DNA of 64,000 nucleotides from a virus: IMG/VR virus record IMGVR_UViG_3300031774_000001; one strand, given 5' to 3'. A program made the translations under genes and the position numbers. Shown piece by piece: positions 16,467 through 55,385 of this stretch; positions within the stretch are counted from its first letter, which is position 1, and each line of letters begins with the position of its first letter. Below the pieces are notes generated by a model. It searched no databases and had not been told where the DNA came from. It was given only the letters and a program-made list of their open reading frames with translations.

Positions 16467-16467
16467 T

Positions 16468-19538: not shown

Positions 19539-19717
19539 CAATAACATATATATCAAACTCGTAAATAAACCAAACAGAAATCTGAAAAACGAGCTGACAA
19601 AAAGGCTATTGTTAAATAACTCTAAAAATTTAAACTATAAATGCAATAACAATCATTAGATATATCGTTATTTAATTTTTCCGCCAAAAAAACCGGCCAG
19701 CATAAATATTCTCAAAT

Positions 19718-37600: not shown

Positions 37601-40600
37601 GACCTAGAGTAGATGACGCTTCAACAATAGATAGTGGCGCTCAAGACCGTTCTTATGATGGTACAGGTGCTTCTACAGTTGATATAATTAAATTTGGAAC
37701 AGATATTACTTCTGACTTTGAATATTACTTACCAAGAATAGATAAAATCTTTTTAGATAAAGAAGGAAACTTTAAAGTAGCTAAAGGCGCAAGTGCTTTA
37801 GTTCCACAAGTTCCAAAAACTTTAGATGGTGCAATGTTATTATATACTTTAGAAATACCTTCTTATGTTTTATCTTTAGACGATATTAAAATTACAAAAA
37901 CTGATAACAAAAGATATACAATGAGAGATATTGGTAATTTAGAAAATAGAATTGAGAGTATGGAATATTATACTCAATTATCATTGTTAGAAACACAAGC
38001 ACAAAATTTACAAATACAAGACGCAAATGGTTTTGATAGATTTAAAAACGGAATTATAGTAGACAACTTTAGTGGTCATAATATAGGTGATGTAGGAAAT
38101 GTAGATTACAAATCATCTATTGATATGGCGCAAGGTCAATTAAGACCTATGTTTAATGAGGACGCAGTTAAATTAATAGAGTCAGATGATGATGGTACTG
38201 TTATTCAAGCGTCTGATAGAACAGATGGTAGTTATCAAAAAACTGGTGATTGTTTAACATTACCTTATACTGAAACTGCTTTAATAACACAACCTTTCGC
38301 AAGTAAAACTGTCAATGTAAATCCATTTGATGTATTTACTTGGGCAGGTACAATAGAATTAACTCCACCTTCAGACGAGTGGAAAGAAACTGAACGAAGA
38401 CCAGAGTTAGTTATCAATAACGTGGGAGGTTTTGATACTTTAGTTTCTGGAATTCCAAATAATGATTTAGAAGGTGTTGAAATAGGAACAATATGGAATG
38501 ATTGGCAAGATTTTTGGTCAGGTTCAACTAGAGATGTTTCAAGTAGACAAGTTGGTGGTGGAAGAAGTGGAAGAAGAGTATTTGCTGTTGATGAAATAGA
38601 AACTGCTCAAACAGTAAGACAAACAAGAACAGGATTAAGACAAAGATTAGTTCCTCAAGTAGTAAGAAATTCAATAGGTGACAGAATTGTTAATGTTGCT
38701 TTTGTTCCATTTGTTAGAAGTAGAACAATATCTTTTGTTGGAACAAGAATGAAACCAAATACAAGAGTTTATCCTTACTTTGATAATATTGGAGTAGCAA
38801 CTTATTGTACACCAAATGGTGGTTCATTAGGAGGCAATGTTGTAACAGACGCCAACGGTGCGTGTTCAGGTACTTTTGCAATTCCTGATCCAACTAATAA
38901 TGCAAATCCAAGATGGCGTACAGGTCAAAGAGTATTCAGATTAACAAGTTCACCTACAAATGATACAAGTTCAGATGTAGAAACTTCAGCAGAAGCAGAT
39001 TATGTCGCAAGAGGAATTTTAGAAACTGTACAGAATACAGTTCTCTCAACAAGAGAACCTAGACTTGTTAGACAAGCTACAACTGAAAACAGAAGTATTA
39101 CAAGAGCTTCAACAAGACGAAGTGAAAGAACGGTTGGTTGGGTTGACCCATTAGCACAAACATTTATGATTGATGATGTTGGTGGTGTATTCTTAACTTC
39201 TGTTGATTTATTTTTTAGTACTAAAGATAATAATATTCCAATTACAGTTCAAATAAGAGAAGTTGTAAATGGATATCCAGGATCAGTAATTGTACCATTT
39301 AGTGAAGTAAGTTTAAATCCAAGTTCAGTAAATATAAGTACTGATGGAACAACATCAACTAAATTTAATTTTTCAGGTCCTGTGTACTTACAAGAAAATG
39401 TTGAGTATTGTTTTGTTGTACTTGCAAACTCAAATGAGTATAATGCTTATGTTGGAAGATTAGGCGAAACAGTAATAGGTTCTGATAGAACAATATCACA
39501 ACAACCATATGCTGGTGTTATGTTTAAATCTCAAAACGGTTCAACTTGGACTGCTGAACAAAACGAAGATATTAAATTTACATTAAATAGAGCAGAATTT
39601 TCAAATGCAATTGGTAGAGTTACCCTTTGCAATGAATCATTACCAGCAAGAAAACTTAAAAACAATCCTATTAGAACAACGCAAGGTTCAGATGTAGTTA
39701 GAGTTTATCATCCAAATCACGGAATGCATAGTACATCAAACAATGTAACTATATCAGGAGTTCCTTCAGGAACATACAACGGATTGGCACATAGTTCTAT
39801 TAACGGAACATATACGACAATATCAAACATAACTTTAGATAGTTATGATATACAAATACCAGGTTCTACAAACGCAAATACTTCAGGAGATATTGGAAGT
39901 AATGCTGTTTATGCAACACAAAATAGATTGTATGATGTTATGAATTTAAATTTATCAACAATGAGTGTACCAGGTACAGCTATATCTTATAAATTAAGAC
40001 CTACTACTGGTCAATCAATACACGGTTCAGAATCAGAATTTAGTACAGTATCAGTTGCAAACTCTGGTTCAGTAATTGCAAATGATAATATCTATTGTAC
40101 TTCACCTAAAATGGTTGCAAGTCAAATAAATGAAACAAATGAAATGAACGGTTTAAAATCATTGTATGTAAATGTAGAAATGTCAACTACAAATACTAAA
40201 CTATCACCACTTATAGATTTACAAAGATGTAGTGCATACACAATACAAAACAGATTAAATAGTCCAACAACTGGTAATACACCAGACTTTGTTGCTGATA
40301 CTGCTCCAACTGGAAGTTCATCAGCAGCTGTGTACTTAACTAGACCAATAGTTTTAGAAAATAATTCTACTTCTCTTGATATAAGACTATCAGCAAATGT
40401 TCGTTCAAGTTCACAAATTAGACTTTTCTATAGAACATCTGGAGGTGCAGAAACTAGAAAAATTGAAGATATAAATTGGTTGCCATTTAATTTAGATGGT
40501 AGCGAAGATATTACAATAGCTCCTGCAGAAGACGATTTAACATTTAGAGAATACAAATATTCAGCAAGTGGATTAAATGATTTCACTTCATTTCAAATTA

Positions 40601-40677
40601 AAATTGTAATGAAAGGAACGATATCATCTTATCCGCCAATCTGTAAAGATATGAGAGGTATTGCATTGGCAATATAA
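34621..40677 (+). CDS. large virion structural protein (VrlC/DUF4815-like)
   Basis: SPYYDDF...K.F.RVLF.P...VQARELTQ, APGAHR, ARRTYDESGDY, RYTMRDIG.LE.RI, DPLAQTF. Confidence 0.88.
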   Translation: MPSPTDFNLSPYYDDFNESKKFHRVLFRPAFAVQARELTQAQTQIQNQVERVSDHLFEKGAMVIPGEIGYDLNYHSVKLSAKSNATLSDYNGLEITGATSGIVAKVVGVAVADGTDPDTLFVKYTKTGTDNTATQFTATETLDCTINSLAATATVDSVHTGCAAEVQKGVYYINGYHVEVSQQTVILDKYTNTPSYRVGLLVTESFVTPNEDASLNDNAQGSSNQNAPGAHRFKILLTLTKLSLASTADANFVELLRLKKGIIQNQVRTTEYAVIEDTFARRTYDESGDYALRDFDLDLREHLLSGDNRGIYASVDGGNADKIAAGMGPGKAYVRGYELETIGTTFIDIDKTRDFETENNFKTRFNLGNYFNVNNVYGSPDVGFVSGDSESFKNVTLFDTATAARGTPNVGADSSINSIGRAKSRGMEYSSGTATNNVFSRNTLTSAVYKHYLFDIEMFTHLNILEATSFTTGEKITGSTSGATATLQGISTAETVTINNITQANPGEVQIASTHELQDGQQITIAGVTGLAIDSVVTAGGTFTVRDRDSANWKLYQADGTTPANVTTPGSGGTATHGVVVLSNVQGDFVAGETITGGTSGNTATVQANTIGRKGVRNFGPSDVKQIAMAGSPTYTSDVKTTDVTLTGTVSNTSGQYSFTGFGTRFTDELKIGDKITVTTDNNLQETKIVSYIVSDTLMFTTDASGASMTKSSITRGRGTINDANKNISIFEMPNETVKTLKTQVNSGITDTNFKIRRAFTSTLGSNGDATITAGTNETFSGLVEKDFTVSIMTMGAGAGGEVGAVLSLTGTNHLAGDIFTLGGSPTGKTLTLNFGTDYAGHKVKILATVNRGVAGSKSKTLNSSQTVQISTQAIIESGICGLGRADVYAVASVHMAADFTTNATTSDTDITNRFNVDSGQRDNFYDIGRIKLKNGALTPTGRLLVTFSYFSHGSGDYFDVDSYSGVVDYADIPSYSSDTTGKKFELRDCLDFRPRVDDASTIDSGAQDRSYDGTGASTVDIIKFGTDITSDFEYYLPRIDKIFLDKEGNFKVAKGASALVPQVPKTLDGAMLLYTLEIPSYVLSLDDIKITKTDNKRYTMRDIGNLENRIESMEYYTQLSLLETQAQNLQIQDANGFDRFKNGIIVDNFSGHNIGDVGNVDYKSSIDMAQGQLRPMFNEDAVKLIESDDDGTVIQASDRTDGSYQKTGDCLTLPYTETALITQPFASKTVNVNPFDVFTWAGTIELTPPSDEWKETERRPELVINNVGGFDTLVSGIPNNDLEGVEIGTIWNDWQDFWSGSTRDVSSRQVGGGRSGRRVFAVDEIETAQTVRQTRTGLRQRLVPQVVRNSIGDRIVNVAFVPFVRSRTISFVGTRMKPNTRVYPYFDNIGVATYCTPNGGSLGGNVVTDANGACSGTFAIPDPTNNANPRWRTGQRVFRLTSSPTNDTSSDVETSAEADYVARGILETVQNTVLSTREPRLVRQATTENRSITRASTRRSERTVGWVDPLAQTFMIDDVGGVFLTSVDLFFSTKDNNIPITVQIREVVNGYPGSVIVPFSEVSLNPSSVNISTDGTTSTKFNFSGPVYLQENVEYCFVVLANSNEYNAYVGRLGETVIGSDRTISQQPYAGVMFKSQNGSTWTAEQNEDIKFTLNRAEFSNAIGRVTLCNESLPARKLKNNPIRTTQGSDVVRVYHPNHGMHSTSNNVTISGVPSGTYNGLAHSSINGTYTTISNITLDSYDIQIPGSTNANTSGDIGSNAVYATQNRLYDVMNLNLSTMSVPGTAISYKLRPTTGQSIHGSESEFSTVSVANSGSVIANDNIYCTSPKMVASQINETNEMNGLKSLYVNVEMSTTNTKLSPLIDLQRCSAYTIQNRLNSPTTGNTPDFVADTAPTGSSSAAVYLTRPIVLENNSTSLDIRLSANVRSSSQIRLFYRTSGGAETRKIEDINWLPFNLDGSEDITIAPAEDDLTFREYKYSASGLNDFTSFQIKIVMKGTISSYPPICKDMRGIALAI

Positions 40678-42773: not shown

Positions 42774-43520
42774 ATGAAAATATTATTAACTGGTTCTGAT
42801 GGATTTATAGGAAAAAATCTAAAGGCATATTTAGAAGTAAGAAATCATACTATTATTGAGATAGACCGTAATAGTGGTAATGATTTACTAACCTGTGATT
42901 TAAAATATGATGTAGATTGGGTAATACATTTAGCAGGACTATCTGGTGTTAGAGATAGTTTAAAAAATCCTACCGAGTATTGGACACAAAACGTTATCGC
43001 AAGTCAAAGAGTATTTGACCATTTCAAAGACACAAAAATTTTATACGCAAGTTCAAGTACTGCATACGAACCTTGGAGAAATCCATATGCAATGAGTAAG
43101 TATTCTATGGAACAAATTGCACCTAAAAAATCTGTTGGTATGAGATTTACTACAGTCTACGGACCAGGTGCTAGAGAAGGTATGTTGATACCTAGAATAT
43201 TAAGAAATGATGTACCATATGTTAATACAAATCATTGGAGAGATTTTATTCACGTAGATGATATATCTTCAGCAATAAACACTTTAATATCTTCAACTGA
43301 AACTGTAATACCATTTGGAGATGTTATAGATATTGGTACTGGAGAAATACATAAACTAACAGACATACTACAATACTTTAAGATTGATAGTGAAGAAAGA
43401 TTAGCAAATGAATTGGAAAGAATATTGAATAAAGCAGATGTATCATTTTTAAATTCTTTAGGTTGGAAACCTGAAGTAAATTTAAGAACATATATTACAA
43501 AAAATAGGATAACAAATTAA
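42774..43520 (+). CDS. NAD-dependent nucleotide-sugar epimerase/dehydratase
   Basis: TGSDGFIG, IHLAG, YASSS, YAMSK, RFTTVYGP, RDFIHVDD. Confidence 0.93.
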   Translation: MKILLTGSDGFIGKNLKAYLEVRNHTIIEIDRNSGNDLLTCDLKYDVDWVIHLAGLSGVRDSLKNPTEYWTQNVIASQRVFDHFKDTKILYASSSTAYEPWRNPYAMSKYSMEQIAPKKSVGMRFTTVYGPGAREGMLIPRILRNDVPYVNTNHWRDFIHVDDISSAINTLISSTETVIPFGDVIDIGTGEIHKLTDILQYFKIDSEERLANELERILNKADVSFLNSLGWKPEVNLRTYITKNRITN

Positions 43521-44005
43521 TGGCGATTTTTAGTGGAAAAATAACTGAAGCAACTTATACAAATGAAAAAAAAGATACAATTGAAATTTTATATAAAGAA
43601 GAGAATAAAATAATTCCATATTATATAGAAGTTAATCATCAGCATCCAGATTTTCAAGATTTAATAAAAGAGTATTCTTTAGATAAAATACAAAATACTA
43701 CATCTAATAAAATTAAAATATATAATGACAATCTTAAAGAAGCTAATAAAATAGATTTGAAAAAATTAACAGATGAATTAGAATATAAAGCAAATAACTT
43801 TACTAATTGGTATGACTTTATGTTTCATTTTGATGAAAAAAATGCTACTCATATGAATTTTTTATTTGAATTAAAATTAAAAATGTTTGATGAAAAAAAG
43901 GTGAAAGTAATGTCCGAAGATAAGAAAAATCTTATTAGAGATTCTTTAAATCCTTTGGAGATTATAAAAATTGTTAATAAAAAAAATAAGATTAAAAATG
44001 ATTAA
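43520..44005 (+). CDS. hypothetical protein
   Basis: TAATG-coupled ORF. Confidence 0.7.
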   Translation: MAIFSGKITEATYTNEKKDTIEILYKEENKIIPYYIEVNHQHPDFQDLIKEYSLDKIQNTTSNKIKIYNDNLKEANKIDLKKLTDELEYKANNFTNWYDFMFHFDEKNATHMNFLFELKLKMFDEKKVKVMSEDKKNLIRDSLNPLEIIKIVNKKNKIKND

Positions 44006-44729
44006 TATAATATGTGTAAGGTGGGGAGATAAGTATATTGAATATACTGAAAAGTTAAAACAACAAGTTGAAAAAAAATGTTCAGTTCCTTTTAAATTTT
44101 ATTGTTTAACTGATAAACCAAAAAAAGATTATGAAATACAATTACCAACTCATTGGGATTCGTATTATATAAAAGATAGATTTTGGGCATATAGAAAACT
44201 TTACATCTTTAATGAAGATTTATTTCCTACTATAAAGGGTGATGATTTTCTTTACCTAGACCTAGATGTTCTCATACATCAAGATTTAAAATATTTCTTT
44301 GATTTAGAAATGAGTAGACCTTATATTGTAAGAGGTTGGTGGAATGATATTAATATGTGTAAAAAGAATTTTGGTAAGATAATTTCAACACCTTTAAACT
44401 CTTCTGTTATTAGATGGACTAGAGGACAATTAAAACCTGTTTATAATTATGTTGAAAAAAATAAAGATTTAGTTTTCTTTACATATAAAACAATAGATAA
44501 TTTTTATAATCATAAGTTTTATAATATTCATAATGAAGATGAAGGATTTTTTAAACCTTTTCCTAAAAATGATATATATTCTTGGTATAAAGGAAATGTA
44601 TTTCCAGATGATATGGGAGAAAAAATATTGCGACCTGATTGTAAAATATGTTTATTTAATAATAGTTATGTGTGGAAAGATAAAGCAGAACATATGAAAC
44701 AAATTGAGGAGATAAAAAGATTATGGTAG
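43998..44729 (+). CDS. GT-A fold glycosyltransferase-like protein
   Basis: IICVRWGDKY, FYCLTD, YLDLDV (DxD), NSSVI.W; start reassigned. Confidence 0.8.
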   Translation: MINIICVRWGDKYIEYTEKLKQQVEKKCSVPFKFYCLTDKPKKDYEIQLPTHWDSYYIKDRFWAYRKLYIFNEDLFPTIKGDDFLYLDLDVLIHQDLKYFFDLEMSRPYIVRGWWNDINMCKKNFGKIISTPLNSSVIRWTRGQLKPVYNYVEKNKDLVFFTYKTIDNFYNHKFYNIHNEDEGFFKPFPKNDIYSWYKGNVFPDDMGEKILRPDCKICLFNNSYVWKDKAEHMKQIEEIKRLW

Positions 44730-45394
44730 AATATATTAAATATACTCCTAAATTATCAAACAATTGGTCAAAGGCTTGGTCTGAAACACAAAAACAAAGA
44801 CCTTGGCAATCAAGAAGATTATTAGATTCATCAACTACTTCACAACTACAAGGTAAGTTATGGTTAGTAAATGAATTACAAAAACTTGATTTAAAATTTT
44901 CAAAAGTTTGTTTAGTTGGTGGATGGTTTGCTCAATTTATAACACCTTTAATGATTGATAATTTTAATGTTGAGTTTATTCACAATTGGGAGATTGATGA
45001 AGACGCTCAAAAAATTAGTTATAAGTTTAATAGAAGATATAAAGAAGATAATAGATATAGAGCATATTGTTCCAATCTTTTTGAATATCATTGGAGTGAT
45101 GAAGTTAAAAAGTATTATAATTATTGGAATAAATTTAGAAATGCAAATTATGATTTAGTTATTAATACATCTTGCGAACATATGTATCCTATGAAAAAAT
45201 TAAGAGAGTATAATCCTGATTTAAAATCTTGGTTTGTTTTACAGTCAACAAACGAAACAAAATTTAAAGACCATATTAATTGTGTTAATAGTACAAAAGA
45301 ATTAGCAGAGCAAGGTGGATTAAAACAAATATTATATGAAGGACAACTAACTTTAGATAATGGTATGACTAGATTTATGGTAATTGGAATATAA
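44723..45394 (+). CDS. class I SAM-dependent methyltransferase-like protein
   Basis: K.WL, LVGGWF, EID, DLVINTSCEHM, VLQS, H.NCV, RFMVIG. Confidence 0.75.
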   Translation: MVEYIKYTPKLSNNWSKAWSETQKQRPWQSRRLLDSSTTSQLQGKLWLVNELQKLDLKFSKVCLVGGWFAQFITPLMIDNFNVEFIHNWEIDEDAQKISYKFNRRYKEDNRYRAYCSNLFEYHWSDEVKKYYNYWNKFRNANYDLVINTSCEHMYPMKKLREYNPDLKSWFVLQSTNETKFKDHINCVNSTKELAEQGGLKQILYEGQLTLDNGMTRFMVIGI

Positions 45395-46476
45395 TGTATA
45401 ATGAAAAAAAACCATTAAGAGTACACGTAGAATTATCTAATAAGTGTAATGCAATGTGTCCACAATGTGGAAGAAATTACATTGATAAAGATGGTGTTTT
45501 AAAAGTTAAACCTACTATGCAAACAGGTGAATTAGTTTTAGAAGATTATAAAAAAATCTTTGATGATAAGTTTTATAATACCTTTGATTTAAAAAAAATT
45601 AATTATTGTGGCAATAGGTCAGACCCTATAGCGTCAAAAGATTTACACGAAATTGTAGAATATTCTTATAGTAGAAATAGTAAAACTAAAATTGTTATTG
45701 CAACAAACGGTGGATTAAAAACAACTGAATGGTGGAGTAAATTTGGCAAATTGATGTCAGATAAACAACATCACGTAGTTTTTGGTTTAGATGGATTAGA
45801 AGATACACACCACATATACAGACAAAGAACAAATTTTAATAAAGTAATATCAAATGCAAAAACATTTATACAAAATGGTGGTAAAGCAGAATGGCAAATG
45901 TTAATATATGAACATAATCAACATCAAATAGATGACGCAAAACAAATGGCAAAAGAAATAGGTTTTGCTAGTTTTAAAGAAGTTTATACTCCAAGATTTT
46001 GGTCTAAAGAAGGTCAACGATTAGAATTTAAAGTTGGTGATAAAGATTATCTATTAGAACCAGCTACAATAGAAAAAAATAAAATAGATAATAAGAAACT
46101 AGGAGAACATTTTGACCCAAAGAATCCTGATAGAGATAAAGAGGCAGGTTATATTGAGTGTAAAGCATTAAAAATTAATGAGTTTTTTTTAGATTTTGAT
46201 GGTAATGTATTGCCTTGTTGTTGGTTGGGTAATAGTTTAAATAGAAAAAATGAAACTTGGTTAAAAGATACTTTGAGATATGCAGATAATATGATGAATT
46301 TTTATGAGCCAAAGGTTATGAATGCTATTGATAATGATTTAACAGAAATACTTTTAGAGTCTATATGGATGAAACAATTACAAAAATCTTGGGATATAGC
46401 ACCTTGTAAGACCTGTGCTAGGTTCTGTAGTAAAAGGATAAATATTAAGAAACAAGTTAATAGGGAAATGTTATGA
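45394..46476 (+). CDS. radical SAM enzyme with SPASM/twitch domain
   Basis: CNAMCPQC; G..SDP; TNGG; F.LDGL; C...G.V.PCCW; C..C...C. Confidence 0.93.
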   Translation: MYNEKKPLRVHVELSNKCNAMCPQCGRNYIDKDGVLKVKPTMQTGELVLEDYKKIFDDKFYNTFDLKKINYCGNRSDPIASKDLHEIVEYSYSRNSKTKIVIATNGGLKTTEWWSKFGKLMSDKQHHVVFGLDGLEDTHHIYRQRTNFNKVISNAKTFIQNGGKAEWQMLIYEHNQHQIDDAKQMAKEIGFASFKEVYTPRFWSKEGQRLEFKVGDKDYLLEPATIEKNKIDNKKLGEHFDPKNPDRDKEAGYIECKALKINEFFLDFDGNVLPCCWLGNSLNRKNETWLKDTLRYADNMMNFYEPKVMNAIDNDLTEILLESIWMKQLQKSWDIAPCKTCARFCSKRINIKKQVNREML

Positions 46477-47213
46477 GTTTAATAGACGCAATGAAATTTA
46501 GAGAGAATATTCGTTTTTTTAAACAAGACGAATATCCAACAGAAGTAGAAATTAAAGCTTTAATTAGGGATGCTCACGAATTAGTTCCTCAAAAGAATAA
46601 TATTGTTGAGTGTAATATAGATGTATATGGACCTAAATGGGCAAAGGAAAAAGAAAAATTAGTTTTAAGCACAATGTGTGGAGTGTCTAAAGAACATTGG
46701 CGTAAAGGTGGTAAGCACGAAGGTGATTATGATTTATTAAAAAAAATTTACGATAGATGGAGAAAAAAACAAGAGCGTCCTAGAGTTCATAGATATGATC
46801 CAGATAATAATTTACCATATCCTGATATGCAATTTAATGAACAAGTTAGAGCGCCTTACTTACTAGTTTATACTCAAAGATTAAGACGACCATCCGAAGA
46901 GCAATTAAAAAGAGGATTTCCAGAATTCGTTTATAAGTTTACTAAATCGGATGATGAAAGTTTGAATTGGTATATATCGGCTGGTATGCACGGAATTAGT
47001 CTTAATTATTTGGCTGCTGATAGGGGTATATATGGTTCTTTTTGTAAATGTTTTCATTGGGATAAAAATAATGATACAGAAATATTAAAACCCGCTGAAA
47101 GAAAACCTAAAGATATTGCTTTTATGATTGGTTTAGGATATAGAGATGAAACTGGTTACTATCCTAAAGAAACAAATTATTCAACATCAAGTGAGTATGT
47201 GAAATGGAAATAA
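46473..47213 (+). CDS. nitroreductase-fold flavoprotein
   Basis: R.NIR.F, P.KNN, Q.RAPYLLV, GM....L.Y.A.D.G..GSFCKC, IGLGY. Confidence 0.7.
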   Translation: MSLIDAMKFRENIRFFKQDEYPTEVEIKALIRDAHELVPQKNNIVECNIDVYGPKWAKEKEKLVLSTMCGVSKEHWRKGGKHEGDYDLLKKIYDRWRKKQERPRVHRYDPDNNLPYPDMQFNEQVRAPYLLVYTQRLRRPSEEQLKRGFPEFVYKFTKSDDESLNWYISAGMHGISLNYLAADRGIYGSFCKCFHWDKNNDTEILKPAERKPKDIAFMIGLGYRDETGYYPKETNYSTSSEYVKWK

Positions 47214-47216
47214 ATT

Positions 47217-47924
47217 ATGAAAATAGTTGCTATTAGAATTGGTGATAAGTACGGTCCCGAATACGAAACATATCTACAAAACAAATTACCACAACACGAA
47301 TTTATTTGGGTAAGAGAACCTTACGATAAAAGAGTTGCTTTACAATGGAATAAAATGTGGGCAATGCAAATGGATATTGATGAACCTATTTGTGTTATTG
47401 ACATTGACATATTACTTGTAAATGATTATAATAAACTATTTGATTATCCTGTTAAGAAAGGACAATTTTTAGCAATACCAGGTTGGTGGAGAGATAGTAC
47501 AAAAAATAGTTATAAAATAAATGGTGGATTCTTTAAGTATTATCCAAAAGAGTGTAAGTACATTTATGATAAGTTTATGAAAGATATAGAATACTGGCAA
47601 CAATATTATATCAAAAATGGGACAACAGCAGGGCCTGTAAATGGTGAACAATATTTTGTAGAAGATAGTGCTAATGAAAGATTAGAAGTTATTACAACAC
47701 CTAATAGTTGGTGTACTCGTTGGACATCAAATGAAGATGTAATTTATGGAAAAGATATGACAGAATGGCAAGTAAAAATTTCTCATAAGTATAGAGACCT
47801 AACAGGCAACCCATATATTTACCTAGACAAATTTCATCCAGATATTAAGTTAGTACACTTTACACACTCAATTAATAAACCTACAGAATGGAAAGATTAT
47901 AATGTGGTTGCTACTTCAAAATAG
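47217..47924 (+). CDS. GT-A fold glycosyltransferase-like protein
   Basis: RIGDKYGPEY, WNKM, IDID, NGGF, GEQ, LVHFT. Confidence 0.78.
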   Translation: MKIVAIRIGDKYGPEYETYLQNKLPQHEFIWVREPYDKRVALQWNKMWAMQMDIDEPICVIDIDILLVNDYNKLFDYPVKKGQFLAIPGWWRDSTKNSYKINGGFFKYYPKECKYIYDKFMKDIEYWQQYYIKNGTTAGPVNGEQYFVEDSANERLEVITTPNSWCTRWTSNEDVIYGKDMTEWQVKISHKYRDLTGNPYIYLDKFHPDIKLVHFTHSINKPTEWKDYNVVATSK

Positions 47925-48372
47925 AAAATACAAAACAAATGAAAATGGAATTGGCACCGTATGTGAAGTATGGATAAATGAAGATAAAGGATTGATTAAA
48001 AGATATTTTAAATCTGATGGTATTACCGTATCTGGAAAACCAGTAGGTTCTGAAAATCCACCAGAAAGAATTAAAGAGTTATTTGAAAATGAAAAGTATT
48101 GGTTAGAAAAATTAAAAAGTAAATGGATACCAGAAACAGTTGAAATAGGAGATAATTATATTATACAAAAATATTATGGACCAGTTATAGGTCATAATGT
48201 AGATAAATGGACAAAACAAGAGAAAGAATTATTAGAATTTTATAAGAATAATAATTGCAATAAAACAAATCATAATGGTTGGTCTATGACAAATAAAGGA
48301 GAACAATTAATAGGTTTTGATTTTAAACACGCATTAAAGATTAAAGGAGAACAAAGGATAGCTGTAGTATGA
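47902..48372 (+). CDS. divergent kinase/phosphotransferase-like protein
   Basis: GIGTV.EV, IKR, FENE, P, FDF; canonical catalytic Asp not seen. Confidence 0.5.
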   Translation: MWLLLQNRKYKTNENGIGTVCEVWINEDKGLIKRYFKSDGITVSGKPVGSENPPERIKELFENEKYWLEKLKSKWIPETVEIGDNYIIQKYYGPVIGHNVDKWTKQEKELLEFYKNNNCNKTNHNGWSMTNKGEQLIGFDFKHALKIKGEQRIAVV

Positions 48373-48956
48373 TTTACACTAAAGAATGGGCGTTTATTCA
48401 TATACCTAAAACTGCTGGACTAAATTTTATATTAAGAATGGAAAAGAAACCAGAAGTTATAAATGCTCAATGGAATTTACAAAAGAAAACTGGACTTAAA
48501 GACGTGAATCATTTACCATTACAATGGTGGTTAGATAGAGGAGAATTAAACAAAGAACAATACATATTTACTTTTGTACGAAATCCATATAGTAGAATTG
48601 TTAGTCTATATAATCATATGTTAATTGAAGGACGTAATATACCAGGATTTAAAGAGTTTATTATGGAGGATATTGTACATACTAAAAATCCTCCTGGTTT
48701 AGATTATGATTTTGGTTGGCCACAATATAAATCTATTGAGAATAACCAAGGAATAAATGTTAAATGTTATAAAATGGAAACAGAATTGCCTTTAGTTGAA
48801 GAGTATATAGGATATATATTTACAGACACTAGATATAATGATATGCCACACGCACCTTGGCAAACTTATTACGATAGTGAAACTAAAGAAAAAGTAAACG
48901 AAAAATATAAAGAAGATTTTAAAAGGTTTAATTATAATGAACACTTATCAATGTAA
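48369..48956 (+). CDS. sulfotransferase family 2
   Basis: FIHIPKTAG (5'-PSB), FVRNPYSRIVS (3'-PB), Y..DF..F.Y. Confidence 0.9.
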   Translation: MIYTKEWAFIHIPKTAGLNFILRMEKKPEVINAQWNLQKKTGLKDVNHLPLQWWLDRGELNKEQYIFTFVRNPYSRIVSLYNHMLIEGRNIPGFKEFIMEDIVHTKNPPGLDYDFGWPQYKSIENNQGINVKCYKMETELPLVEEYIGYIFTDTRYNDMPHAPWQTYYDSETKEKVNEKYKEDFKRFNYNEHLSM

Positions 48957-49536
48957 AGATGATATAATAAATGCAGATGAAAAAGGGCAACTTTTGTCTG
49001 AAGTAAAGAATATTAGTTTATGGTCTAATAAACTTTCTTACTATGCACCTAAAGATGATACTGGTACAGGTATAAGAGTAATGAAAGTTAGAGAAGATGA
49101 TGACTACCATCAAACAAAAGTATATAAAGAATTTATAAAAAATCAAAAATCTCCTTTAGAAGGTTTGTTTGAAAAATTGGTTAATAAGATTAATCCTAAA
49201 TTAAAATTTTTTGTAGTAGATTATATAAGGTTTGCACCAATGGATGATATTACTATTCATAAAGATACGGATACTGTTCCTGGAAGAGCGTCTTGTATTA
49301 CTTGGCCGTTATATCCAGAGTTAAAAGATTTTTCTCCAGTAAAATATTATAATGATGATAAAACTTTTAATGAAGATGTTTATTATCAAGAAAAACCTTT
49401 GATTGTTAGTACTGCTAAAAATCATTGTTGTTTTAACGGTAGTCAAGAAGCTAGATTTACTTTTCAAATTTGTTTTTATGATCCAATAGAAAGATTGGCT
49501 GAATTAGACCAAAAAGGAGAATTGTTTAATGTATGA
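48937..49536 (+). CDS. 2OG-Fe(II) oxygenase-like protein
   Basis: HKD...H...N....RF.FQ. Confidence 0.65.
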   Translation: MNTYQCKDDIINADEKGQLLSEVKNISLWSNKLSYYAPKDDTGTGIRVMKVREDDDYHQTKVYKEFIKNQKSPLEGLFEKLVNKINPKLKFFVVDYIRFAPMDDITIHKDTDTVPGRASCITWPLYPELKDFSPVKYYNDDKTFNEDVYYQEKPLIVSTAKNHCCFNGSQEARFTFQICFYDPIERLAELDQKGELFNV

Positions 49537-49966
49537 TTTAACAAATATATTAGTTGAGATTGAAACTTTACCTAAATGGGACGAGCAAATATGCTTACAA
49601 GGTACAGAAACTAATAAAGACCCCTTTGCTGGTATTAATTCATTGTTAACAACACCAGAAAAAGAAATAGAATTTAAATATAATTTATTTGATTTACCTT
49701 ATATAAATTCTATTATAAAAGAACATAATTTATATAGAGTTAGATTAATGAATTTAAAAAGTAAGACTTGTTATTCTTATCATCAAGACCAATGTAAACG
49801 ATTTCATATACCTTTAATTACAAATGATAATTGTTTCTTTGTTGTTGATGATAAAGTTAAAAGATATCCAGCAGATGGTAATTATTATATAATTGATACA
49901 GATAAAAAACATACTGCTGTTAATGCTTCTTGGGAAGATAGAATTCATTTAGTAGGTAATTTATGA
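49529..49966 (+). CDS. Asp/Asn beta-hydroxylase-like 2OG oxygenase
   Basis: RVRLM, CYSYHQD, RFHIPLITN, HTAVNAS..DRIHLVG. Confidence 0.8.
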   Translation: MYDLTNILVEIETLPKWDEQICLQGTETNKDPFAGINSLLTTPEKEIEFKYNLFDLPYINSIIKEHNLYRVRLMNLKSKTCYSYHQDQCKRFHIPLITNDNCFFVVDDKVKRYPADGNYYIIDTDKKHTAVNASWEDRIHLVGNL

Positions 49967-50475
49967 ACACATACCAATGTAAAAATGATATAATAAATGA
50001 AGATGAAAGAAAGCAACTTTTATCTCAAGCAAGAGGTTGTGATTATTATAATTATACAACTGATAAAGGAACAAATACAGGATTACAAGTTGTTAAACTA
50101 CCTATAGATGGTTTAGTTAAAAAATTGGTTAATAAGACCAATTCTAAATTGAAATTTTTTATAGCAGATTTTATAAAGTTTGATCCTAAAGTTGGAATTC
50201 ATCCTCATAAAGATGACCACCTTGGAAGAGCTTCTTGTATTACTTGGGCATTGTATCCATCATTAAAAGATTTTTGTCCTATAAAATATTATAATGAAGA
50301 TAAAACTTTTAATGAAGAAGTATATTATGAAAAGAAACCTTTAATTATTACGACTAGAAATAATCATAGTTGTAGTAATGAAAGTGAAGTAGAAAGATAT
50401 ACTTTTCAATTGTGTTTTTATGATCCAATAGAAAAATTAGCGGAGTTAGACCAAAAAGACGAGTTGTTTATATGA
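49963..50475 (+). CDS. 2OG-Fe(II) oxygenase-like protein (paralog of 48937)
   Basis: HKD...H...R; shared N- and C-termini. Confidence 0.65.
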   Translation: MNTYQCKNDIINEDERKQLLSQARGCDYYNYTTDKGTNTGLQVVKLPIDGLVKKLVNKTNSKLKFFIADFIKFDPKVGIHPHKDDHLGRASCITWALYPSLKDFCPIKYYNEDKTFNEEVYYEKKPLIITTRNNHSCSNESEVERYTFQLCFYDPIEKLAELDQKDELFI

Positions 50476-50903
50476 TAATAAAAGAGATAACACACGAACA
50501 AGCATTAGAGTGGATATCTAAACAAGATTTAGAGGATACTTGGCATACAGATTTTAAAGAATGGAAAAAACATTTAATTTTAGCAGCTAAATATTGGCCT
50601 TGGGTTAAAAAGTTTTATAGAGGTAAGAATAATTGGTTAGGGGCCTTTGATGATGAGTTATGTGGTGTTTATTGGTATACAATTGTTGAAAATGAAATGT
50701 ATGATGGTTTTTTAATATCAAGAAAACAAGGTGCAGGATTAAAATTAGCAAGAGAGTTATATAATAGAACAAAAGGTCAATGGAGATATAATTGGACAAT
50801 GTGTAGTAAAGAATATTTAAAGTTTAATAATAGATTAGGATTTCAAGGAACACAATATGCTAATATTACTCCTTGGTATGAGGTATATTTACTATGGCGA
50901 TAA
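50472..50903 (+). CDS. GNAT-like acyltransferase
   Basis: RKQGAGLKL motif A; FN.RLGF. Confidence 0.6.
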   Translation: MIIKEITHEQALEWISKQDLEDTWHTDFKEWKKHLILAAKYWPWVKKFYRGKNNWLGAFDDELCGVYWYTIVENEMYDGFLISRKQGAGLKLARELYNRTKGQWRYNWTMCSKEYLKFNNRLGFQGTQYANITPWYEVYLLWR

Positions 50904-51991
50904 AAGAGATATTAAGTTTTAATAAGATACATAGTGGCGCTGAAGAAGTAATATCTGCTAAGTCTTATGAGTTAACGTTTAAAGATGGCAAGGTATTAAA
51001 AGATACAATGTCTGGTCTTTGGAACGTACCTTTAGGTTATTCTAATACAAATATAAAACAAGTTATGAAAGAACAATTAGATAAGTTGCCATATGCAAGT
51101 AATTTTTCTGGTTATCATAGTCAAATAACTGAACAATATGCTGATGAAATTTGTAAGAGAACAAATATGAGTAGAGTATATTTTACAAATAGTGGAAGTG
51201 CTGCTGTTGAAACAGCAATTAAATTATCAGGTAAGAATATAGCAGTATGTGGAAAACATAGTTATCACGGTTCTACAATATTAAGTGCTAATGCAAGTGA
51301 CCAAGATATTAATAAATTTTGGAAGATACAAAATCCTATGAGTGTTCATAAGTTTGAAGATTCAGATGACCTAATACAAATATCAAATGGTTTATTTGAT
51401 TTGTCTTTTGTAATTATAGAACCTGTTGTGGGAGCGGGTGGTGTTTATGAGTGGCAACCTGAAATATGGGATATATTAAAAGAGTATCAACAAAGAGGTG
51501 GTGTAGTTATACTAGATGAAACAGTTACAGGTTTTGGTAAACTAGGTACTATGTTTGCCTTTGAAAAATATAATATAGAACCAGATATGATTGTATTAGG
51601 AAAGGGTATAACTAATGGATATTTTCCTATGGGCGCTTGTTTAATAAATGAAAGAATAGAAAAGTCAGTTAAAATGTTTAATCACGGTTTTACTTATTCA
51701 GGACATCCTGTTGGTTGTGCCGCTGCTTTAGAAACAATTAGAGAGATAGATAAATTAGATTTAGAACATAAACAAATAAATGGTATTACAAGACAGTATG
51801 GTTGTATGGGTGCAATAGATTTTGAAACTCCAAGACAATCATTAACATTTATTAAAAAAATGAGAGAGAAAGGTTATATCTTGGAAGATGGATCAGAAAA
51901 CGTATCAACTGCTGTATTTTGTTTACCATATGTCTTTCAAGAACACAACGAATTTGAGGAGGCAATAAAATGTACCATAACGGATATGTAG
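50894..51991 (+). CDS. class III PLP aminotransferase
   Basis: D..SGLWN..LG, FTNSGS.A.E, YHG, IEPV, DE..TGFG..G, PD...LGKG..NG.FP, HGFTYSGHP. Confidence 0.95.
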   Translation: MAIKEILSFNKIHSGAEEVISAKSYELTFKDGKVLKDTMSGLWNVPLGYSNTNIKQVMKEQLDKLPYASNFSGYHSQITEQYADEICKRTNMSRVYFTNSGSAAVETAIKLSGKNIAVCGKHSYHGSTILSANASDQDINKFWKIQNPMSVHKFEDSDDLIQISNGLFDLSFVIIEPVVGAGGVYEWQPEIWDILKEYQQRGGVVILDETVTGFGKLGTMFAFEKYNIEPDMIVLGKGITNGYFPMGACLINERIEKSVKMFNHGFTYSGHPVGCAAALETIREIDKLDLEHKQINGITRQYGCMGAIDFETPRQSLTFIKKMREKGYILEDGSENVSTAVFCLPYVFQEHNEFEEAIKCTITDM

Positions 51992-52785
51992 AAACTTTAC
52001 CTGTACAATTGCCAGAAGTAACTCAATTGATTAAAGAATATTTTAAAGAACATTATAATCACAATTATATTTGTAGATATAAAAAAGAATTAATTGAAGA
52101 ATTTATAAAAGATTTTATACCTTGGTTAAATAAAGGTCATTTAAAATTTAAAGGTTTAGAAGATTTTAAAAATGTTTATATAACAAATGGTGTTACCGAG
52201 TTTATTCAAATTGCAATGGTTGAACATAGTTTAAGACCTATATGTGTTGAGGACGATTATCAAGCATTTAGTGCTAATGCTTCAGCTTATATTCGTTCAG
52301 GTATTAAATTAAATAATAAAATAAATGTAATTACTTTGCCCTTTTGTAAAACGGCAGACATACATCCTAAAACCTGTGAGATATTAGACACCCCTTGTTG
52401 GGTTGATTTAGCTTGGGCAGGTAATAGTGGCATTAAAGAAACTTTTGATTTAAGTAAAGCTGAGTATGCGTCATTTAGTTTTAGTAAATGTTTTGGTGTG
52501 CAATATCATAGAATAGGAATTTGTTTTTCTAAAAAACCTATAAAAATTATGGAATTACAAAAAGGATTTGAGTATGTTAATATAGTAGGTGTGGAATTAA
52601 TGAAGTATATGATGAACAAAATATCACCTTCATATTTGTACGATAAATATAAGGATATAGCGCATAAAATTTGTGCTGATAACAATTTACAACCTACCAA
52701 AAACTTATGGATAGGTTTAGAAGATGGTAAAAGAAAACCACTAATAGAATACTGGATGAAATATTTAAATGAGAACAGCAAATAA
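51970..52785 (+). CDS. fold-type I PLP-dependent enzyme (aminotransferase/decarboxylase-like)
   Basis: TNGVTE, VDLAW, SFSK (PLP lysine), RIG. Confidence 0.7.
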   Translation: MYHNGYVETLPVQLPEVTQLIKEYFKEHYNHNYICRYKKELIEEFIKDFIPWLNKGHLKFKGLEDFKNVYITNGVTEFIQIAMVEHSLRPICVEDDYQAFSANASAYIRSGIKLNNKINVITLPFCKTADIHPKTCEILDTPCWVDLAWAGNSGIKETFDLSKAEYASFSFSKCFGVQYHRIGICFSKKPIKIMELQKGFEYVNIVGVELMKYMMNKISPSYLYDKYKDIAHKICADNNLQPTKNLWIGLEDGKRKPLIEYWMKYLNENSK

Positions 52786-53536
52786 AGAATTTTTTGACTA
52801 TACAAAAAGCCTTCCCTTCAAAGATATAACTCATTTTTGGGATATACCTTATAAGCAAATATTAGAAGAAGTAAAACTAGTTGATGAAAAACATTGGAGT
52901 AGACCTTTTAATGTTGATAATAATAAGGTAAAGGAATTAGGACTAGACGATAAATCAAGTCTTAATCATTATCCTGGATGGGATGGAAAGTTAATAGAAG
53001 CACACGGTTGGAAAACTTTATGTATGCTAAATGAAACAGGAGATAGTACGGATCAAATTTATAATTTTCCACCTGTATTTAATACAGCAAATGATTATAA
53101 AAAAGGTTTAAAAGATTTTAAAGTTGAAAGATACTGGACAAATGCTGCTGAATTTTGTCCTACACTAGTTAAATTTTTTAAAGAAGTAGTATCAAAGTAT
53201 ATGCAATTTGTTCAAATATCTGTAACCAGATTAGATGGTGGTGGAGTTATTACTGAACACAATGATATACCAATTGATAGTAGAAATCTATTAGAAAGTA
53301 AACATATGCATATGTATGATATGCTGAATACTTTTAACCTATGTTTAAATCACGTTGATGGTTGTTATGGGGTATTTGATAATAAGGTTATACCTGCTTA
53401 TGAGGGTTGTTTAAGATGGACAAATATAGGTAAGCAACATTGGGTATTAAATATGAATAGACAGCCACAATATCAAATTATATGGAATGGAATTTATAAA
53501 AAAAGTTTTAGACGACTTGTAGAGGAGAATAAATAG
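52769..53536 (+). CDS. Asp/Asn beta-hydroxylase-like 2OG oxygenase
   Basis: WT...EFCP....F, L..GG.I..HND, H.V.N. Confidence 0.75.
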   Translation: MRTANKEFFDYTKSLPFKDITHFWDIPYKQILEEVKLVDEKHWSRPFNVDNNKVKELGLDDKSSLNHYPGWDGKLIEAHGWKTLCMLNETGDSTDQIYNFPPVFNTANDYKKGLKDFKVERYWTNAAEFCPTLVKFFKEVVSKYMQFVQISVTRLDGGGVITEHNDIPIDSRNLLESKHMHMYDMLNTFNLCLNHVDGCYGVFDNKVIPAYEGCLRWTNIGKQHWVLNMNRQPQYQIIWNGIYKKSFRRLVEENK

Positions 53537-53540
53537 TAGT

Positions 53541-54239
53541 ATGGCGATTATAGACAAACACAAAGGTGTAAAAATAGACAAAGCATTTTCAGATAGACAC
53601 GTGGAGATGTTTGCTTTCTTTGATAAGCACGGTATAGATGTTGAAGTTAATGATAACTTCAAAGATTTTCAACATTTTTTAACTCATTTAACAGCAGACA
53701 ATTATCCTTATAGATATGATGAATTTTTTAATGCAAGTAATTTAGTTGGCAATGATACTGCTTATGCATTATATTTAAAGAAAGATGATAAAATTATAGC
53801 TACATATGCTGCTAAAGAATTAGAGTTTTCATCTTTTTTTGGTGATATTAGAGAATTTGCAGGTGGACGTTTTGATAAAGTTACAGAAGATTTAAATGAA
53901 AATAGTTTTAGCAAATTAGGGACTTGTATGTATAGTTCTTGTCAATGGGTAGATACAGAATATAGAGGCAAACGTTTTGGTATGATATTAGACCATTTAA
54001 AGAAAAATATATGTTTTGATATTTTTGAAGCTGATATGAATTATGCAATTCATAAAGAACAATTTGCTGATTATCATATAAAAGGATTGCATTATGATGA
54101 AAGTAAATGGTTAGCAACTGTAGAAAAAGGTGATGTAGGTGGTGCAGGTGAAAAGAAAGATAAAGTTTACCATTTAACTTGGGTTACAAAAGAATCTTGG
54201 GCGAATAAATTAAATGATGTTAGAAAGTTATATATTTAA
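53541..54239 (+). CDS. GNAT/acyl-transferase-like protein
   Basis: WVD.EYRGKRFG motif A-like; late-promoter variant directly upstream. Confidence 0.5.
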   Translation: MAIIDKHKGVKIDKAFSDRHVEMFAFFDKHGIDVEVNDNFKDFQHFLTHLTADNYPYRYDEFFNASNLVGNDTAYALYLKKDDKIIATYAAKELEFSSFFGDIREFAGGRFDKVTEDLNENSFSKLGTCMYSSCQWVDTEYRGKRFGMILDHLKKNICFDIFEADMNYAIHKEQFADYHIKGLHYDESKWLATVEKGDVGGAGEKKDKVYHLTWVTKESWANKLNDVRKLYI

Positions 54240-54771
54240 ACCATCAGAATTACCACAACAATATCGTATTCAAATTAACGACATTATAAAAGATGTTGTT
54301 GAAAGTAAAACAGACCAATACTGGAAAAATTATACAAAGTTTAATCTTGATGAGCAAACTGCTATATCTATAAATTGTGATGGAGATGATGTAAAGGTTA
54401 TATCATCAATATATCATAGAAATTTTTATGGAAAAGATGTCTATAGATTAATGAATAGGAGTTTGTATTCTAAAGATTATAGAGAAACTGGTGGTTCTAA
54501 AATGAGAAATGGTGAACATACTGCCCACCCAATGATAGCACAACAGATAAATTTTGTTGAAGACCTTAAACCTAAATTCTATTTCATAAGCAGACAAAGA
54601 ACAAATACTAGATGGTTAAAGTATTATTTTGATACTTTTAATAAGGAGTATAATAGGAATTTGGTTGTTAGCGACCAGCAGTATTGGGTTTGTGATGGTA
54701 GTAAAGAGGGTTGCTTACAGACAATTATCTACCCAAAAGATATGGAAGTACCTTTGAAATCTTATAAATAG
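54214..54771 (+). CDS. hypothetical, possibly GNAT-like protein
   Basis: YWKNY, YRLMNR.....DYR, YFISRQ motifs. Confidence 0.5.
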   Translation: MMLESYIFKPSELPQQYRIQINDIIKDVVESKTDQYWKNYTKFNLDEQTAISINCDGDDVKVISSIYHRNFYGKDVYRLMNRSLYSKDYRETGGSKMRNGEHTAHPMIAQQINFVEDLKPKFYFISRQRTNTRWLKYYFDTFNKEYNRNLVVSDQQYWVCDGSKEGCLQTIIYPKDMEVPLKSYK

Positions 54772-54801: not shown

Positions 54802-55005
54802 ATGATAACAATTGACGGAAAAGAGTATGATGAACAAAAGTTTAGTCCTGAATTACAAAATTACATAGCAGTAAGACAAGAAATTCAAGTAAGCAAGACT
54901 AGACATTTAATTGAGATTGAAAAAATAGATGTTTTAACCAAGCATTATAACGAAAAAATAGTCAAGTTGATTAAAAAAGAAGTACCAGAATCCGAGAAAA
55001 AATAA
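54802..55005 (+). CDS. small conserved protein (MITIDGKEY family)
   Basis: Late promoter at 54763; GGAG RBS. Confidence 0.75.
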   Translation: MITIDGKEYDEQKFSPELQNYIAVRQEIQVSKTRHLIEIEKIDVLTKHYNEKIVKLIKKEVPESEKK

Positions 55006-55341
55006 ATGGCAGCTATAGCTAACCTAACGATAGACCAAGGCGCAACCTTTACTTCCGACGTAACTGTAAAGGACGCTAATGCTCAACCGTTTGACCTAAC
55101 TGGTTATACGGCACAAGCTAAGATGGCAAAGGGCTTTGCTTCCACACGAACAAGGACGACAATCACCACTACATTACCAAGTAATCCTGCTACAGGCACG
55201 GTTACCTTATCATTAACGTCTGCTCAAACAGCAGCTCTTGACGCTGAAAGATATGTTTACGACCTTGAAATAACAAAGGGTTCAGAAGTAACCCGAGTTA
55301 TTGAAGGATTAATTACTGTAAGACCTCAAGTTACTACTTAA
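55006..55341 (+). CDS. virion protein, BppU-N/baseplate upper-like
   Basis: ANLTIDQGATF, DLTGYTA.A, G.V.LSLT..QT, RYVYD.EI, RVIEG. Confidence 0.75.
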   Translation: MAAIANLTIDQGATFTSDVTVKDANAQPFDLTGYTAQAKMAKGFASTRTRTTITTTLPSNPATGTVTLSLTSAQTAALDAERYVYDLEITKGSEVTRVIEGLITVRPQVTT

Positions 55342-55385
55342 ATCAACTTCTCTTTGTTATAAATATAAGATAAAAGGGAGAGAGA

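Follow-up and report, generated by a model that had tools for sequence, protein, structure and literature searches.

A putative sugar-modification cassette with a conserved core and exchangeable accessory genes in the host recognition cluster of a pelagimyophage

Positions 42774-54771 of a 64,000-nt stretch of viral DNA (IMG/VR record IMGVR_UViG_3300031774_000001, in the following called the window) hold an island of enzyme genes. From sequence comparison, this island appears to form the enzyme cassette within the host recognition cluster that has already been published for pelagimyophages (PMC7029224). An earlier note, made from the sequence alone, had presented it as an undescribed system, which cannot be upheld since the region is already in the literature. 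By comparison with related loci, the island consists of a conserved core (GT-A glycosyltransferase, spermidine-synthase-like transferase, radical S-adenosylmethionine (SAM)/SPASM enzyme and often a nitroreductase-fold protein) and of accessory sets that are swapped between phages. The cassette is best explained as a set of soluble, cytoplasmic and probably late enzymes, which would build and tailor a sugar-based modification.

Exactly 18 plus-strand open reading frames (ORFs) of at least 100 aa lie in the island, in agreement with the estimate of about 18 co-directional, overlapping or coupled ORFs in the earlier note. Their starts and stops mostly overlap, and the widest gaps are 16 and 30 nt. 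Proteins are named here by the first position of their ORF. A cytoplasmic site of action is proposed because none of the 18 proteins contains a 19-residue hydrophobic segment (maximum 19-residue Kyte-Doolittle mean ≤1.57). Sugar chemistry is supported by the epimerase, by the GT-A fold with its invariant DxD motif, by the Sulfotransfer_2 family and by a GT8 sister family in relatives. The coherent, soluble and probably late enzyme set with sugar chemistry that had been proposed before is therefore retained, on account of the nucleoside diphosphate (NDP)-sugar short-chain dehydrogenase/reductase (SDR), two retaining GT-A transferases and the carbohydrate-type sulfotransferase.

Pelagibacter phage Mosig EXVC030M was the only isolate match to a 13.5-kb query across the island (among 50,697 isolate phage records). 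The Mosig annotation has the same gene order, i.e. baseplate genes, VrlC, three hypothetical proteins, an epimerase, an 18-kb enzyme run and small fibre-associated genes. Because of this sole match and the common gene order, we assign the window to a pelagimyophage, that is, a T4-like phage of SAR11.

Conserved core and mosaic periphery

The region between VrlC and gp14 was named host recognition cluster and was found to hold glycosyltransferases, mainly of GT8 type, and radical SAM cassettes (Zaragoza-Solas et al. 2020, PMC7029224). In a study from 2025 it was still poorly annotated (PMC12379486). The island resembles this cluster in phage group and in position, downstream of VrlC and among fibre genes. 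Further likenesses are the glycosyltransferases (GT8 is stressed in the publication), the radical SAM cassettes, the Asp/Asn hydroxylases, the lack of synteny between relatives and the homology of the Mosig island. Accordingly, we found the island downstream of VrlC, a CBM_5_12 fibre at 59041 together with GT-A genes, and, among relatives, 49 distinct architectures and 111 families. PMC7029224 treats the region as hypervariable and related to lipopolysaccharide (LPS), whereas here a core is resolved from a mosaic periphery. The split into core and periphery, a near-universal gene (family 0, see below) and the late-promoter motifs are new compared with that publication.

For the comparison, 80 IMG/VR loci (L numbers) were retrieved with the structural protein encoded at 41828-42757, which together with the window and Mosig gives 82 loci. 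Their 712 downstream ORFs were clustered into 111 families, 56 of which are singletons. Distinct architectures with at least five genes number 49. Of these, 92% have a GT-A or GT8 gene, 84% the class I transferase and 82% a radical SAM enzyme; the three values are lower bounds, since many of the loci are truncated where their contigs end. The core families recur in either orientation, and the smallest closed islands (about 4.4 kb) hold core families only, namely one GT-A, two GT8, one radical SAM and the class I transferase gene. Variable accessory families include a carbamoyltransferase, a DegT aminotransferase, further radical SAM enzymes, TauD, AspH-like and desaturase-like proteins.

The head of the island in the window (epimerase, family 0, glycosyltransferase, class I transferase, radical SAM enzyme, nitroreductase, glycosyltransferase) recurs in L008/L009, L014, L065, L038/L042, L039 and L077. 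The relatives nearest by VrlC (L002, L003 and L006, 91-93% identical) have only the epimerase in common with the window and carry a different cassette. In L008 the tail sub-module (49529 plus 50472-52785) is 67-90% identical and the flanking structural protein 61%. Since the sub-module is more alike than its flank, we regard this as a signature of cassette exchange. Random shuffling of gene content among relatives, which the earlier note had named as evidence against a pathway, is thus seen in the periphery and not in the core and head, where recurrence reaches 82-92%.

A different distribution is found for family 0, represented by the small charged protein 43520 (43520..44005). Its predicted structure (AlphaFold2, pLDDT 90.7) has an N-terminal three-stranded sheet followed by long helices, which is not an enzyme fold. 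Searches of the PDB, of BFVD and a wide VIA search gave no significant match to this fold, only generic small-sheet and three-helix matches. The family is found in 73 of the 82 loci and in 98% of architectures, always on the structural strand and either as first gene or as second gene after the epimerase. It also occurs in loci that lack the enzyme cassette and in which neck genes follow directly. Consequently, it belongs to the structural backbone. In this lineage 43520 follows the cassette and not the flank, with 29% identity to relatives that have 88% flank identity and 41% to relatives sharing the cassette head; the global correlation is rho 0.21 with the cassette vs 0.19 with the flank. 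As the family correlates globally no better with the cassette than with the flank and occurs without the cassette, a role as cassette-specific component or acceptor was rejected.

Mosig is the only isolate with proteins related to the core GT-A and to the class I transferase, apart from one Ralstonia jumbo phage that has the transferase. The core is therefore specific to pelagimyophages. The Ralstonia homolog lies at 215955-216509 of phage RsoM2USA (MG752970.1) and is 31% identical. Cellular homologs of the class I transferase (27-33% identity) occur in Rhizobiales, where the gene stands alone, and also in Bdellovibrionales. No SAR11 genome was among the top 80 cellular homologs of this transferase, hence the cassette was not copied from surface-glycan genes of the host. 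In the Bdellovibrionales the transferase gene stands beside many radical SAM enzymes and homologs of the AspH-like and pyridoxal phosphate (PLP) proteins. These clusters contain no homolog of the two phage glycosyltransferase families, and a Pfam scan of ten extra ORFs revealed no glycosyltransferase.

Five Bdellovibrionales contigs from metagenome-assembled genomes (MAGs; L083, L084, L085, L096 and L135, approximately positions 1-20000) contain at least eight radical SAM genes and three tandem PP-loop/QueC-like genes. The same clusters further encode an AspH-like and a PLP protein, and in them the phage-type class I transferase is part of a 410-455-aa fusion. A further contig of 2.5 kb, assigned to a Flavobacteriales MAG (L082, 409-2413), shows family 0, GT-A and class I transferase in phage order at 35-55% identity. 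In all likelihood, a fragment of a pelagimyophage was binned here into a bacterial MAG.

Predicted enzymes of the island

The first gene (42774..43520) encodes a short extended-SDR enzyme of the NDP-sugar epimerase/dehydratase type with 248 aa (Pfam Epimerase 1.9e-25, GDP_Man_Dehyd 5e-14; PHROG 540 3.7e-46). Its GxxGxxG and YxxxK motifs are present. Identity to the nearest relatives is 88-92%, and the gene is always found on the plus strand ahead of the 43520 family.

Both GT-A glycosyltransferases named in the earlier note are confirmed, one by its predicted structure and the other by profile alignment. Protein 47217 (47217..47924) was modelled from an alignment with AlphaFold2 (pLDDT 88.6). 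Foldseek retrieved the catalytic domain of UGGT, LgtC, glycogenin, GlyE and an alpha-1,3-galactosyltransferase with E values of 5e-7 to 3e-5, and gave a probability of 1.00 with TM scores of 0.45-0.58 for UGGT, LgtC, glycogenin and GlyE; a retaining-type enzyme is indicated. The DID motif (D62-I-D64) is invariant in 23 sequences. The best PDB profile match reached E 0.059, and 762 metagenomic homologs were found, none of them with a Pfam domain. This is the most conserved gene of the island, with 62-69% identity across phages whose flanks are 47-62% identical. The second transferase, 43971 (43971..44729), belongs to a paralogous family, which aligns to the 47217 family with hhalign at 99.4% (E 1.3e-21) and has a weak PHROG glycosyltransferase match. 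Its DxD motif (D89/D91) is invariant, and its true start is probably the ATG at 43995. Neither protein has a Pfam match even at E 5, and the gathering score of Glyco_transf_8 is not reached; a sister family in relatives (family 4) does pass Glyco_transf_8.

Protein 44723 (44723..45394) has a spermidine-synthase-like Rossmann core, with PDB profile matches to spermidine synthases (E 1.4e-5) and to methyltransferases (E 4e-3). The earlier label, a SAM methyltransferase, holds insofar as the fold is of class I SAM type; the best PDB profile matches are spermidine synthases. We did not accept a spermidine synthase either. The GGGDG loop of these enzymes, whose Asp excludes the SAM carboxylate, was not found in the 44723 family, and the consensus reads GGW[FY] instead. 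With moderate confidence, 44723 is a class I SAM-dependent transferase that would transfer methyl or aminoalkyl groups.

The adjacent gene encodes a radical SAM enzyme (45394..46476; Pfam Radical_SAM 30.4 bits vs a cut-off of 29.5) with a CX3CX2C cluster motif near residue 18 and a fused SPASM/twitch-like C-terminal Cys domain. Here, C-x13-G-x4-C and C-x2-C-x3-C motifs for auxiliary clusters are found. SPASM/twitch families of NCBIfam match down to 1e-10, all far below the family cut-offs. In relatives the C-terminal domain is a separate ORF that is SPASM-positive in Pfam. For 46473 (46473..47213) a nitroreductase-fold, flavin mononucleotide-binding protein is proposed with moderate confidence. 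It aligns with hhalign at 88% (E 3.3e-6) to a sister family of island proteins, itself positive for Pfam Nitroreductase, and PDB nitroreductase matches are weak.

In the tail of the island, 48369 (48369..48956) is a carbohydrate-type sulfotransferase (Pfam Sulfotransfer_2 1.2e-10; PHROG galactose-3-O-sulfotransferase 9e-10) with PKTAG and RNPYSR motifs for binding of 3'-phosphoadenosine-5'-phosphosulfate. A class III (omega) aminotransferase, compact with 365 aa, is encoded at 50894..51991 (Pfam Aminotran_3 3.5e-51). The earlier note had counted four 2-oxoglutarate/Fe(II) oxygenases, and all four are borne out as AspH-type proteins. The clearest is 49529 (49529-49966; Pfam Asp_Arg_Hydrox 1.8e-9). 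Protein 52769 (52769..53536) has a weak Pfam match of 0.005, a family member at 6e-10 and an hhalign match of 95% to the 49529 family. The paralogs 48937 (48937-49536) and 49963 (49963-50475) show a weak Pfam match of 0.13 and align to the AspH family with hhalign at 60% (E 8.6e-5). Their HxD..H..N..R set is invariant. The assignments of these paralogs and of 52769 are moderate; a PDB profile search with both paralogs gave nothing usable. The two paralogs are 62% identical and flank the third AspH-type gene in a tandem duplication (48937-50475), one copy having a 21-residue deletion.

The remaining tail genes are less clear. A small protein at 47902..48372 may be kinase-like, as 2 of 27 homologs match Pkinase (0.0029) or RIO1 (0.0086). 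In all, 49 homologs were retrieved, and an Asn and an FDF motif are near-invariant. The protein itself has no direct match, and its PDB profile search gave nothing usable. Protein 51970 (51970..52785) is weakly assigned as a fold-type I PLP enzyme from a match to the ACC synthase profile (E 0.08) across the invariant SxSK lysine; its homolog in Mosig is annotated as aminotransferase. The small protein 50472 (50472..50903), 90% identical to a homolog in L008, is GNAT-like by a Q-G-A-G motif only and was without match in Pfam and NCBIfam. For 53541 (53541..54239) a GNAT-like acyltransferase is a lead from the ESM Atlas (0.96 to 'N-acetyltransferase' clusters); a PDB profile search was without match. 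A pooled scan of the 53541 family and of relatives of 54214 and 50472 gave Acetyltransf_1 in 3 of 31 proteins (best E 0.028), the matching members not being attributed. Protein 54214 (54214..54771) adjoins an AspH-like gene in five relatives. It has no match in Pfam, PHROG or PDB profile searches, nor attributable Acetyltransf_1 support.

Overall, the enzyme labels of the earlier note have good support for 11 ORFs. Support is weak for the kinase-like protein, the second PLP enzyme and the two GNAT-like proteins (47902, 51970, 53541 and 50472), and a label for 54214 finds none. We regard as firm the two GT-A transferases and the assignments of 42774, 45394, 48369, 49529 and 50894.

Flanking genes, base composition and transcription

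VrlC and Ser/Thr-rich structural genes flank the island on one side and more fibre genes on the other, so that its described place among tail-fibre genes stands. The VrlC-type baseplate protein (34621..40677, plus strand; Pfam DUF4815 1.1e-56) is the upstream anchor of the host recognition cluster. It is 63% identical to the 'putative VrlC protein' of Mosig and lies in a syntenic position. Two plus-strand genes follow (40905-41816 and 41828-42757), encoding Ser/Thr-rich (25-29%) structural proteins of about 300 aa each, which are candidate acceptors. Pfam and PHROG searches with these two proteins were without match; a weak profile match to phage depolymerase chains (E 0.004) was obtained. Homologs of 41828-42757 were found in 81 of 81 related loci. 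Ser and Thr together make up 19-29% of the flanking structural proteins vs 6-15% of the island enzymes.

The right-hand border is fixed by three small ORFs of 67, 111 and 82 aa (54802-55634), which are conserved at 61-78% in Mosig (L001 35998-36546), L014, L060 and L065. The 111-aa protein has a weak match to invasin-D3, an Ig-like domain, and is annotated as tail fibre protein in Mosig. Further downstream a 1550-aa fibre with five CBM_5_12 modules is encoded (59041-63693). The window ends at 64000 inside the fibre genes, and in the relatives L039 and L052 a T4 neck-protein gene follows.

Mean gene GC content is 27.4% in the island vs 33.1% in the flanks (p 0.0009). The island is thus AT-rich, as had been noted, but this is no sign of a foreign insertion. 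GC content at third codon positions is equal (0.156 vs 0.161); therefore the low value is due to amino-acid composition, and a foreign origin deduced from it was rejected. The gap reflects Lys/Asn/Ile-rich enzymes beside Gly/Ser/Thr-rich structural proteins. Terminator-like sites in the island are not above chance compared with shuffled sequences, consistent with the earlier remark that no terminator was seen.

Sigma-70-like promoter sites are no commoner than in shuffles. One perfect consensus, TTGACA-17-TATAAT at 47404-47432, lies within the 47217 glycosyltransferase gene. It was set aside as a coding coincidence because it overlaps codons of the invariant DID motif and because such sites are not enriched. 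It might nevertheless serve the variable tail as an internal promoter.

The T4 late motif TATAAATA has 14 plus-strand copies in the window, 10 of which are intergenic and 6-30 nt before an ORF start. The 7-mer ATAAATA is twofold rarer than in shuffles (28 found vs 54 expected), and the plus strand carries 25 of these 28 copies. Because of this depletion and strand bias, TATAAATA probably works as late promoter in the window. Sites of TATAAATA or ATAAATA (e.g. 648, 5727, 14655, 33126, 54763 and 59014) provide a usable map of T4-type late transcription units. The copy at 54763..54770 on the plus strand, 32 nt before the 54802 ORF, marks the next unit after the island. An internal late promoter near 53528, as claimed before, was not confirmed. 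The site is AATAAATA, a 7/8 match ending 5 nt before an ATG, and no full TATAAATA lies inside the island.

In relatives the motif is found directly at the cassette. Where the start of an inverted cassette was captured (Mosig, L036 and L047), TATAAATA lies 13-19 nt before its first gene, and it stands directly before single cassette genes in L008, L029, L076 and L038. On the plus strand it is present in 13 of 368 upstream regions of cassette genes, including those of the L008 epimerase and of the L029 and L076 class I transferases, against a background of 0.9% per 120-nt window. We take this as moderate evidence for late expression of the cassette genes in several relatives. For the phage studied here late expression of the island is probable; the motifs of its relatives are no direct evidence of it.

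Possible acceptors and competing explanations

The chemistry of the pathway, its timing in this phage and its acceptor are what we infer from these data. Judging by family membership, the short NDP-sugar SDR would remodel a nucleotide sugar supplied by the host, and the two retaining GT-A transferases would add sugars to the acceptor. Core tailoring would be carried out by the conserved trio of spermidine-synthase-like class I transferase, radical SAM/SPASM enzyme and nitroreductase-fold flavoprotein. The swappable tail, with the sulfotransferase, four AspH-type hydroxylases, two PLP enzymes, GNAT-like acyltransferases and the kinase-like protein, would presumably add strain-specific decoration. 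As acceptor we tentatively favour the phage's own virion proteins, i.e. its Ser/Thr-rich baseplate and fibre proteins, at somewhat less than even chances; they are rated slightly ahead of host envelope glycans. The cassette lies among fibre genes, late motifs precede cassette genes in relatives, no membrane or export function is encoded, and fold relatives (UGGT, glycogenin, GlyE) act on protein glycans, all of which may point in this direction.

Several observations speak against this explanation. Neither a sugar-nucleotide synthase nor a nucleotidyltransferase or other activation enzyme is found among the 18 ORFs, and neither an acceptor nor a glycan was identified in this analysis. For these reasons the pathway cannot be called self-contained, as the earlier note had done. 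Enzymes of GT8 type also build the LPS core, and the AspH family includes lipid A hydroxylases. Since the class I transferase and radical SAM families co-occur in Bdellovibrionales clusters without homologs of the two phage glycosyltransferase families, the core trio need not act on sugars and may not be sugar-specific. Four ORF assignments are weak, and two ORFs (54214 and 43520) have no assigned function. With regard to timing, no perfect TATAAATA is found inside the island, which lies in a motif-free stretch of 21.6 kb (33126-54763), so that it would be read through from the baseplate unit. In 53% of the architectures at least three cassette genes are on the strand opposite to the structural and fibre genes. 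Because of these inversions, the continuation from the fibre genes that had been proposed is not conserved as simple read-through. No late motif precedes the minus-strand genes of the minimal islands L018, L026, L029, L045 and L076. Finally, the authors of PMC7029224 favoured modification of the host O-chain to avoid coinfection.

Modification of the host envelope is the published interpretation of the region (PMC7029224; repeated in PMC12379486), and we consider it possible, if less probable than a virion acceptor. In this case the hydroxylases, the sulfotransferase and the soluble GT8-like transferases would remodel a surface glycan of SAR11 (LPS core, lipid A or another one) at the inner membrane face and block superinfection or the loss of progeny on debris. 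The LPS galactosyltransferase LgtC among the top fold matches of 47217, the Pfam GT8 family of relatives, the carbohydrate family Sulfotransfer_2 and the existence of lipid A hydroxylases within the AspH family all fit. LPS-core glycosyltransferases, moreover, need no membrane segment. On the other hand, the 18 ORFs include no gene for a lipid carrier, flippase, polymerase or ligase, and none of them encodes a membrane protein. This absence extends to the integral membrane components of Gtr-type or Wzx/Wzy systems (GtrA/B/C, flippase, polymerase, ligase), although host components could be used. Exclusion would be useful early in infection, whereas the motifs before cassette genes of relatives are late ones. 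Moreover, SAR11 does not appear among the 80 best cellular homologs of the class I transferase, and the core is conserved across phages with widely differing fibres.

A free small molecule or modified peptide, such as a RiPP-like (ribosomally synthesized and post-translationally modified peptide) product or cofactor, is a rather unlikely product of the cassette. In this reading a peptide or amine would be the substrate of the radical SAM/SPASM enzyme, the flavoprotein, the hydroxylases, the PLP enzymes and the acyltransferases, and would be glycosylated late, as in mycofactocin. Peptides are the usual substrates of SPASM radical SAM enzymes, and the NCBIfam matches include PqqE, mycofactocin and sactipeptide maturases, but all scores are far under the family cut-offs. 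Class I transferase, radical SAM, PLP and AspH-like proteins do occur together in Bdellovibrionales without homologs of the phage glycosyltransferases, and a class III aminotransferase is atypical for sugar amination. However, the ORFs of at least 60 aa gave no sign of a precursor peptide, a recognition element, a protease or an exporter, and glycosyltransferases are the most constant component of the architectures. Hypermodification of the phage DNA against host nucleases, by base glycosylation or aminoalkylation, appears very improbable. Clusters for base hypermodification combine kinases, PLP enzymes, radical SAM enzymes and glycosyltransferases, and glycosylation of DNA has been raised for marine phage glycosyltransferases (PMC12801897). 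The cassette, however, lies within the late structural module and not beside replication genes. Searches of Pfam, NCBIfam and PHROG with the 18 ORFs gave no match to a base hydroxymethylase, 5-hydroxymethyldeoxyuridine kinase, pyrophosphorylase or DNA glycosyltransferase, and restriction systems are rare in SAR11 (PMC7029224). The probability that remains after these four readings falls to something else.

Decoration of virions by virus-encoded enzymes has precedents. In Mimivirus and chloroviruses, clade-specific clusters of sugar-modifying enzymes and glycosyltransferases decorate fibrils or the capsid, and collagen-like proteins are modified by a hydroxylase followed by a glycosyltransferase. 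These clusters differ from the island in their eukaryotic hosts, in their enzyme families and in the lack of a radical SAM/nitroreductase core. Collagen-like G-X-Y runs were found neither in the window nor in any flanking protein, so that such repeats are ruled out as hydroxylase targets. According to the papers that cite Freeman 2023 (PMC12619734, PMC12801897), virion glycosylation by glycosyltransferases of the structural module is established only for mycobacteriophages. As described there, these systems likewise have glycosyltransferase genes within the structural module and soluble enzymes able to act on virion proteins in the cytoplasm. They comprise one or two glycosyltransferases, however, with proven glycans on capsid and tail-tube C-termini, whereas the 17 genes of the island cover a predicted chemistry of redox, PLP, sulfo- and acyl-transfer reactions. 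Similar genes of putative function are also listed for cyanomyophages (PMC12801897). The LPS-like 'cell wall synthesis and modification' genes of P-SSM2, S-SCSM1 and S-SCSM2R belong to marine T4-like phages too and include many glycosyltransferases and NDP-sugar epimerases. In contrast to these, the families of the core GT-A and class I transferase are confined to Mosig among isolates, apart from the transferase of the Ralstonia jumbo phage.

If virion proteins are the acceptor, a bolder proposal can be made, which we put forward as a speculation with the odds against it. The conserved soluble core and the exchangeable cassettes might form a generator of virion glycotypes, i.e. of strain-specific, heavily tailored glycans (sulfated, aminated, acylated, hydroxylated) on the phage's own baseplate and fibre proteins, with accessory cassettes swapped by recombination to diversify adsorption or escape. 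If true, no earlier system of this kind would be known from T4-like phages, and its carriers would belong to a virus group that is among the most abundant of the ocean.

Myophages of SAR11 are among the most abundant viruses of the sea, and their largest variable region is full of enzymes of putative function. The core gene set of this region is now defined. The question is testable, since Mosig is in culture, has the same core families and carries the canonical late-promoter motif directly before its cassette. If the virion is decorated, fibre sequence and a swappable glycan layer would together determine the host range. If the host surface is remodelled instead, these enzymes would shape the competition of phages for the most abundant marine bacterium.

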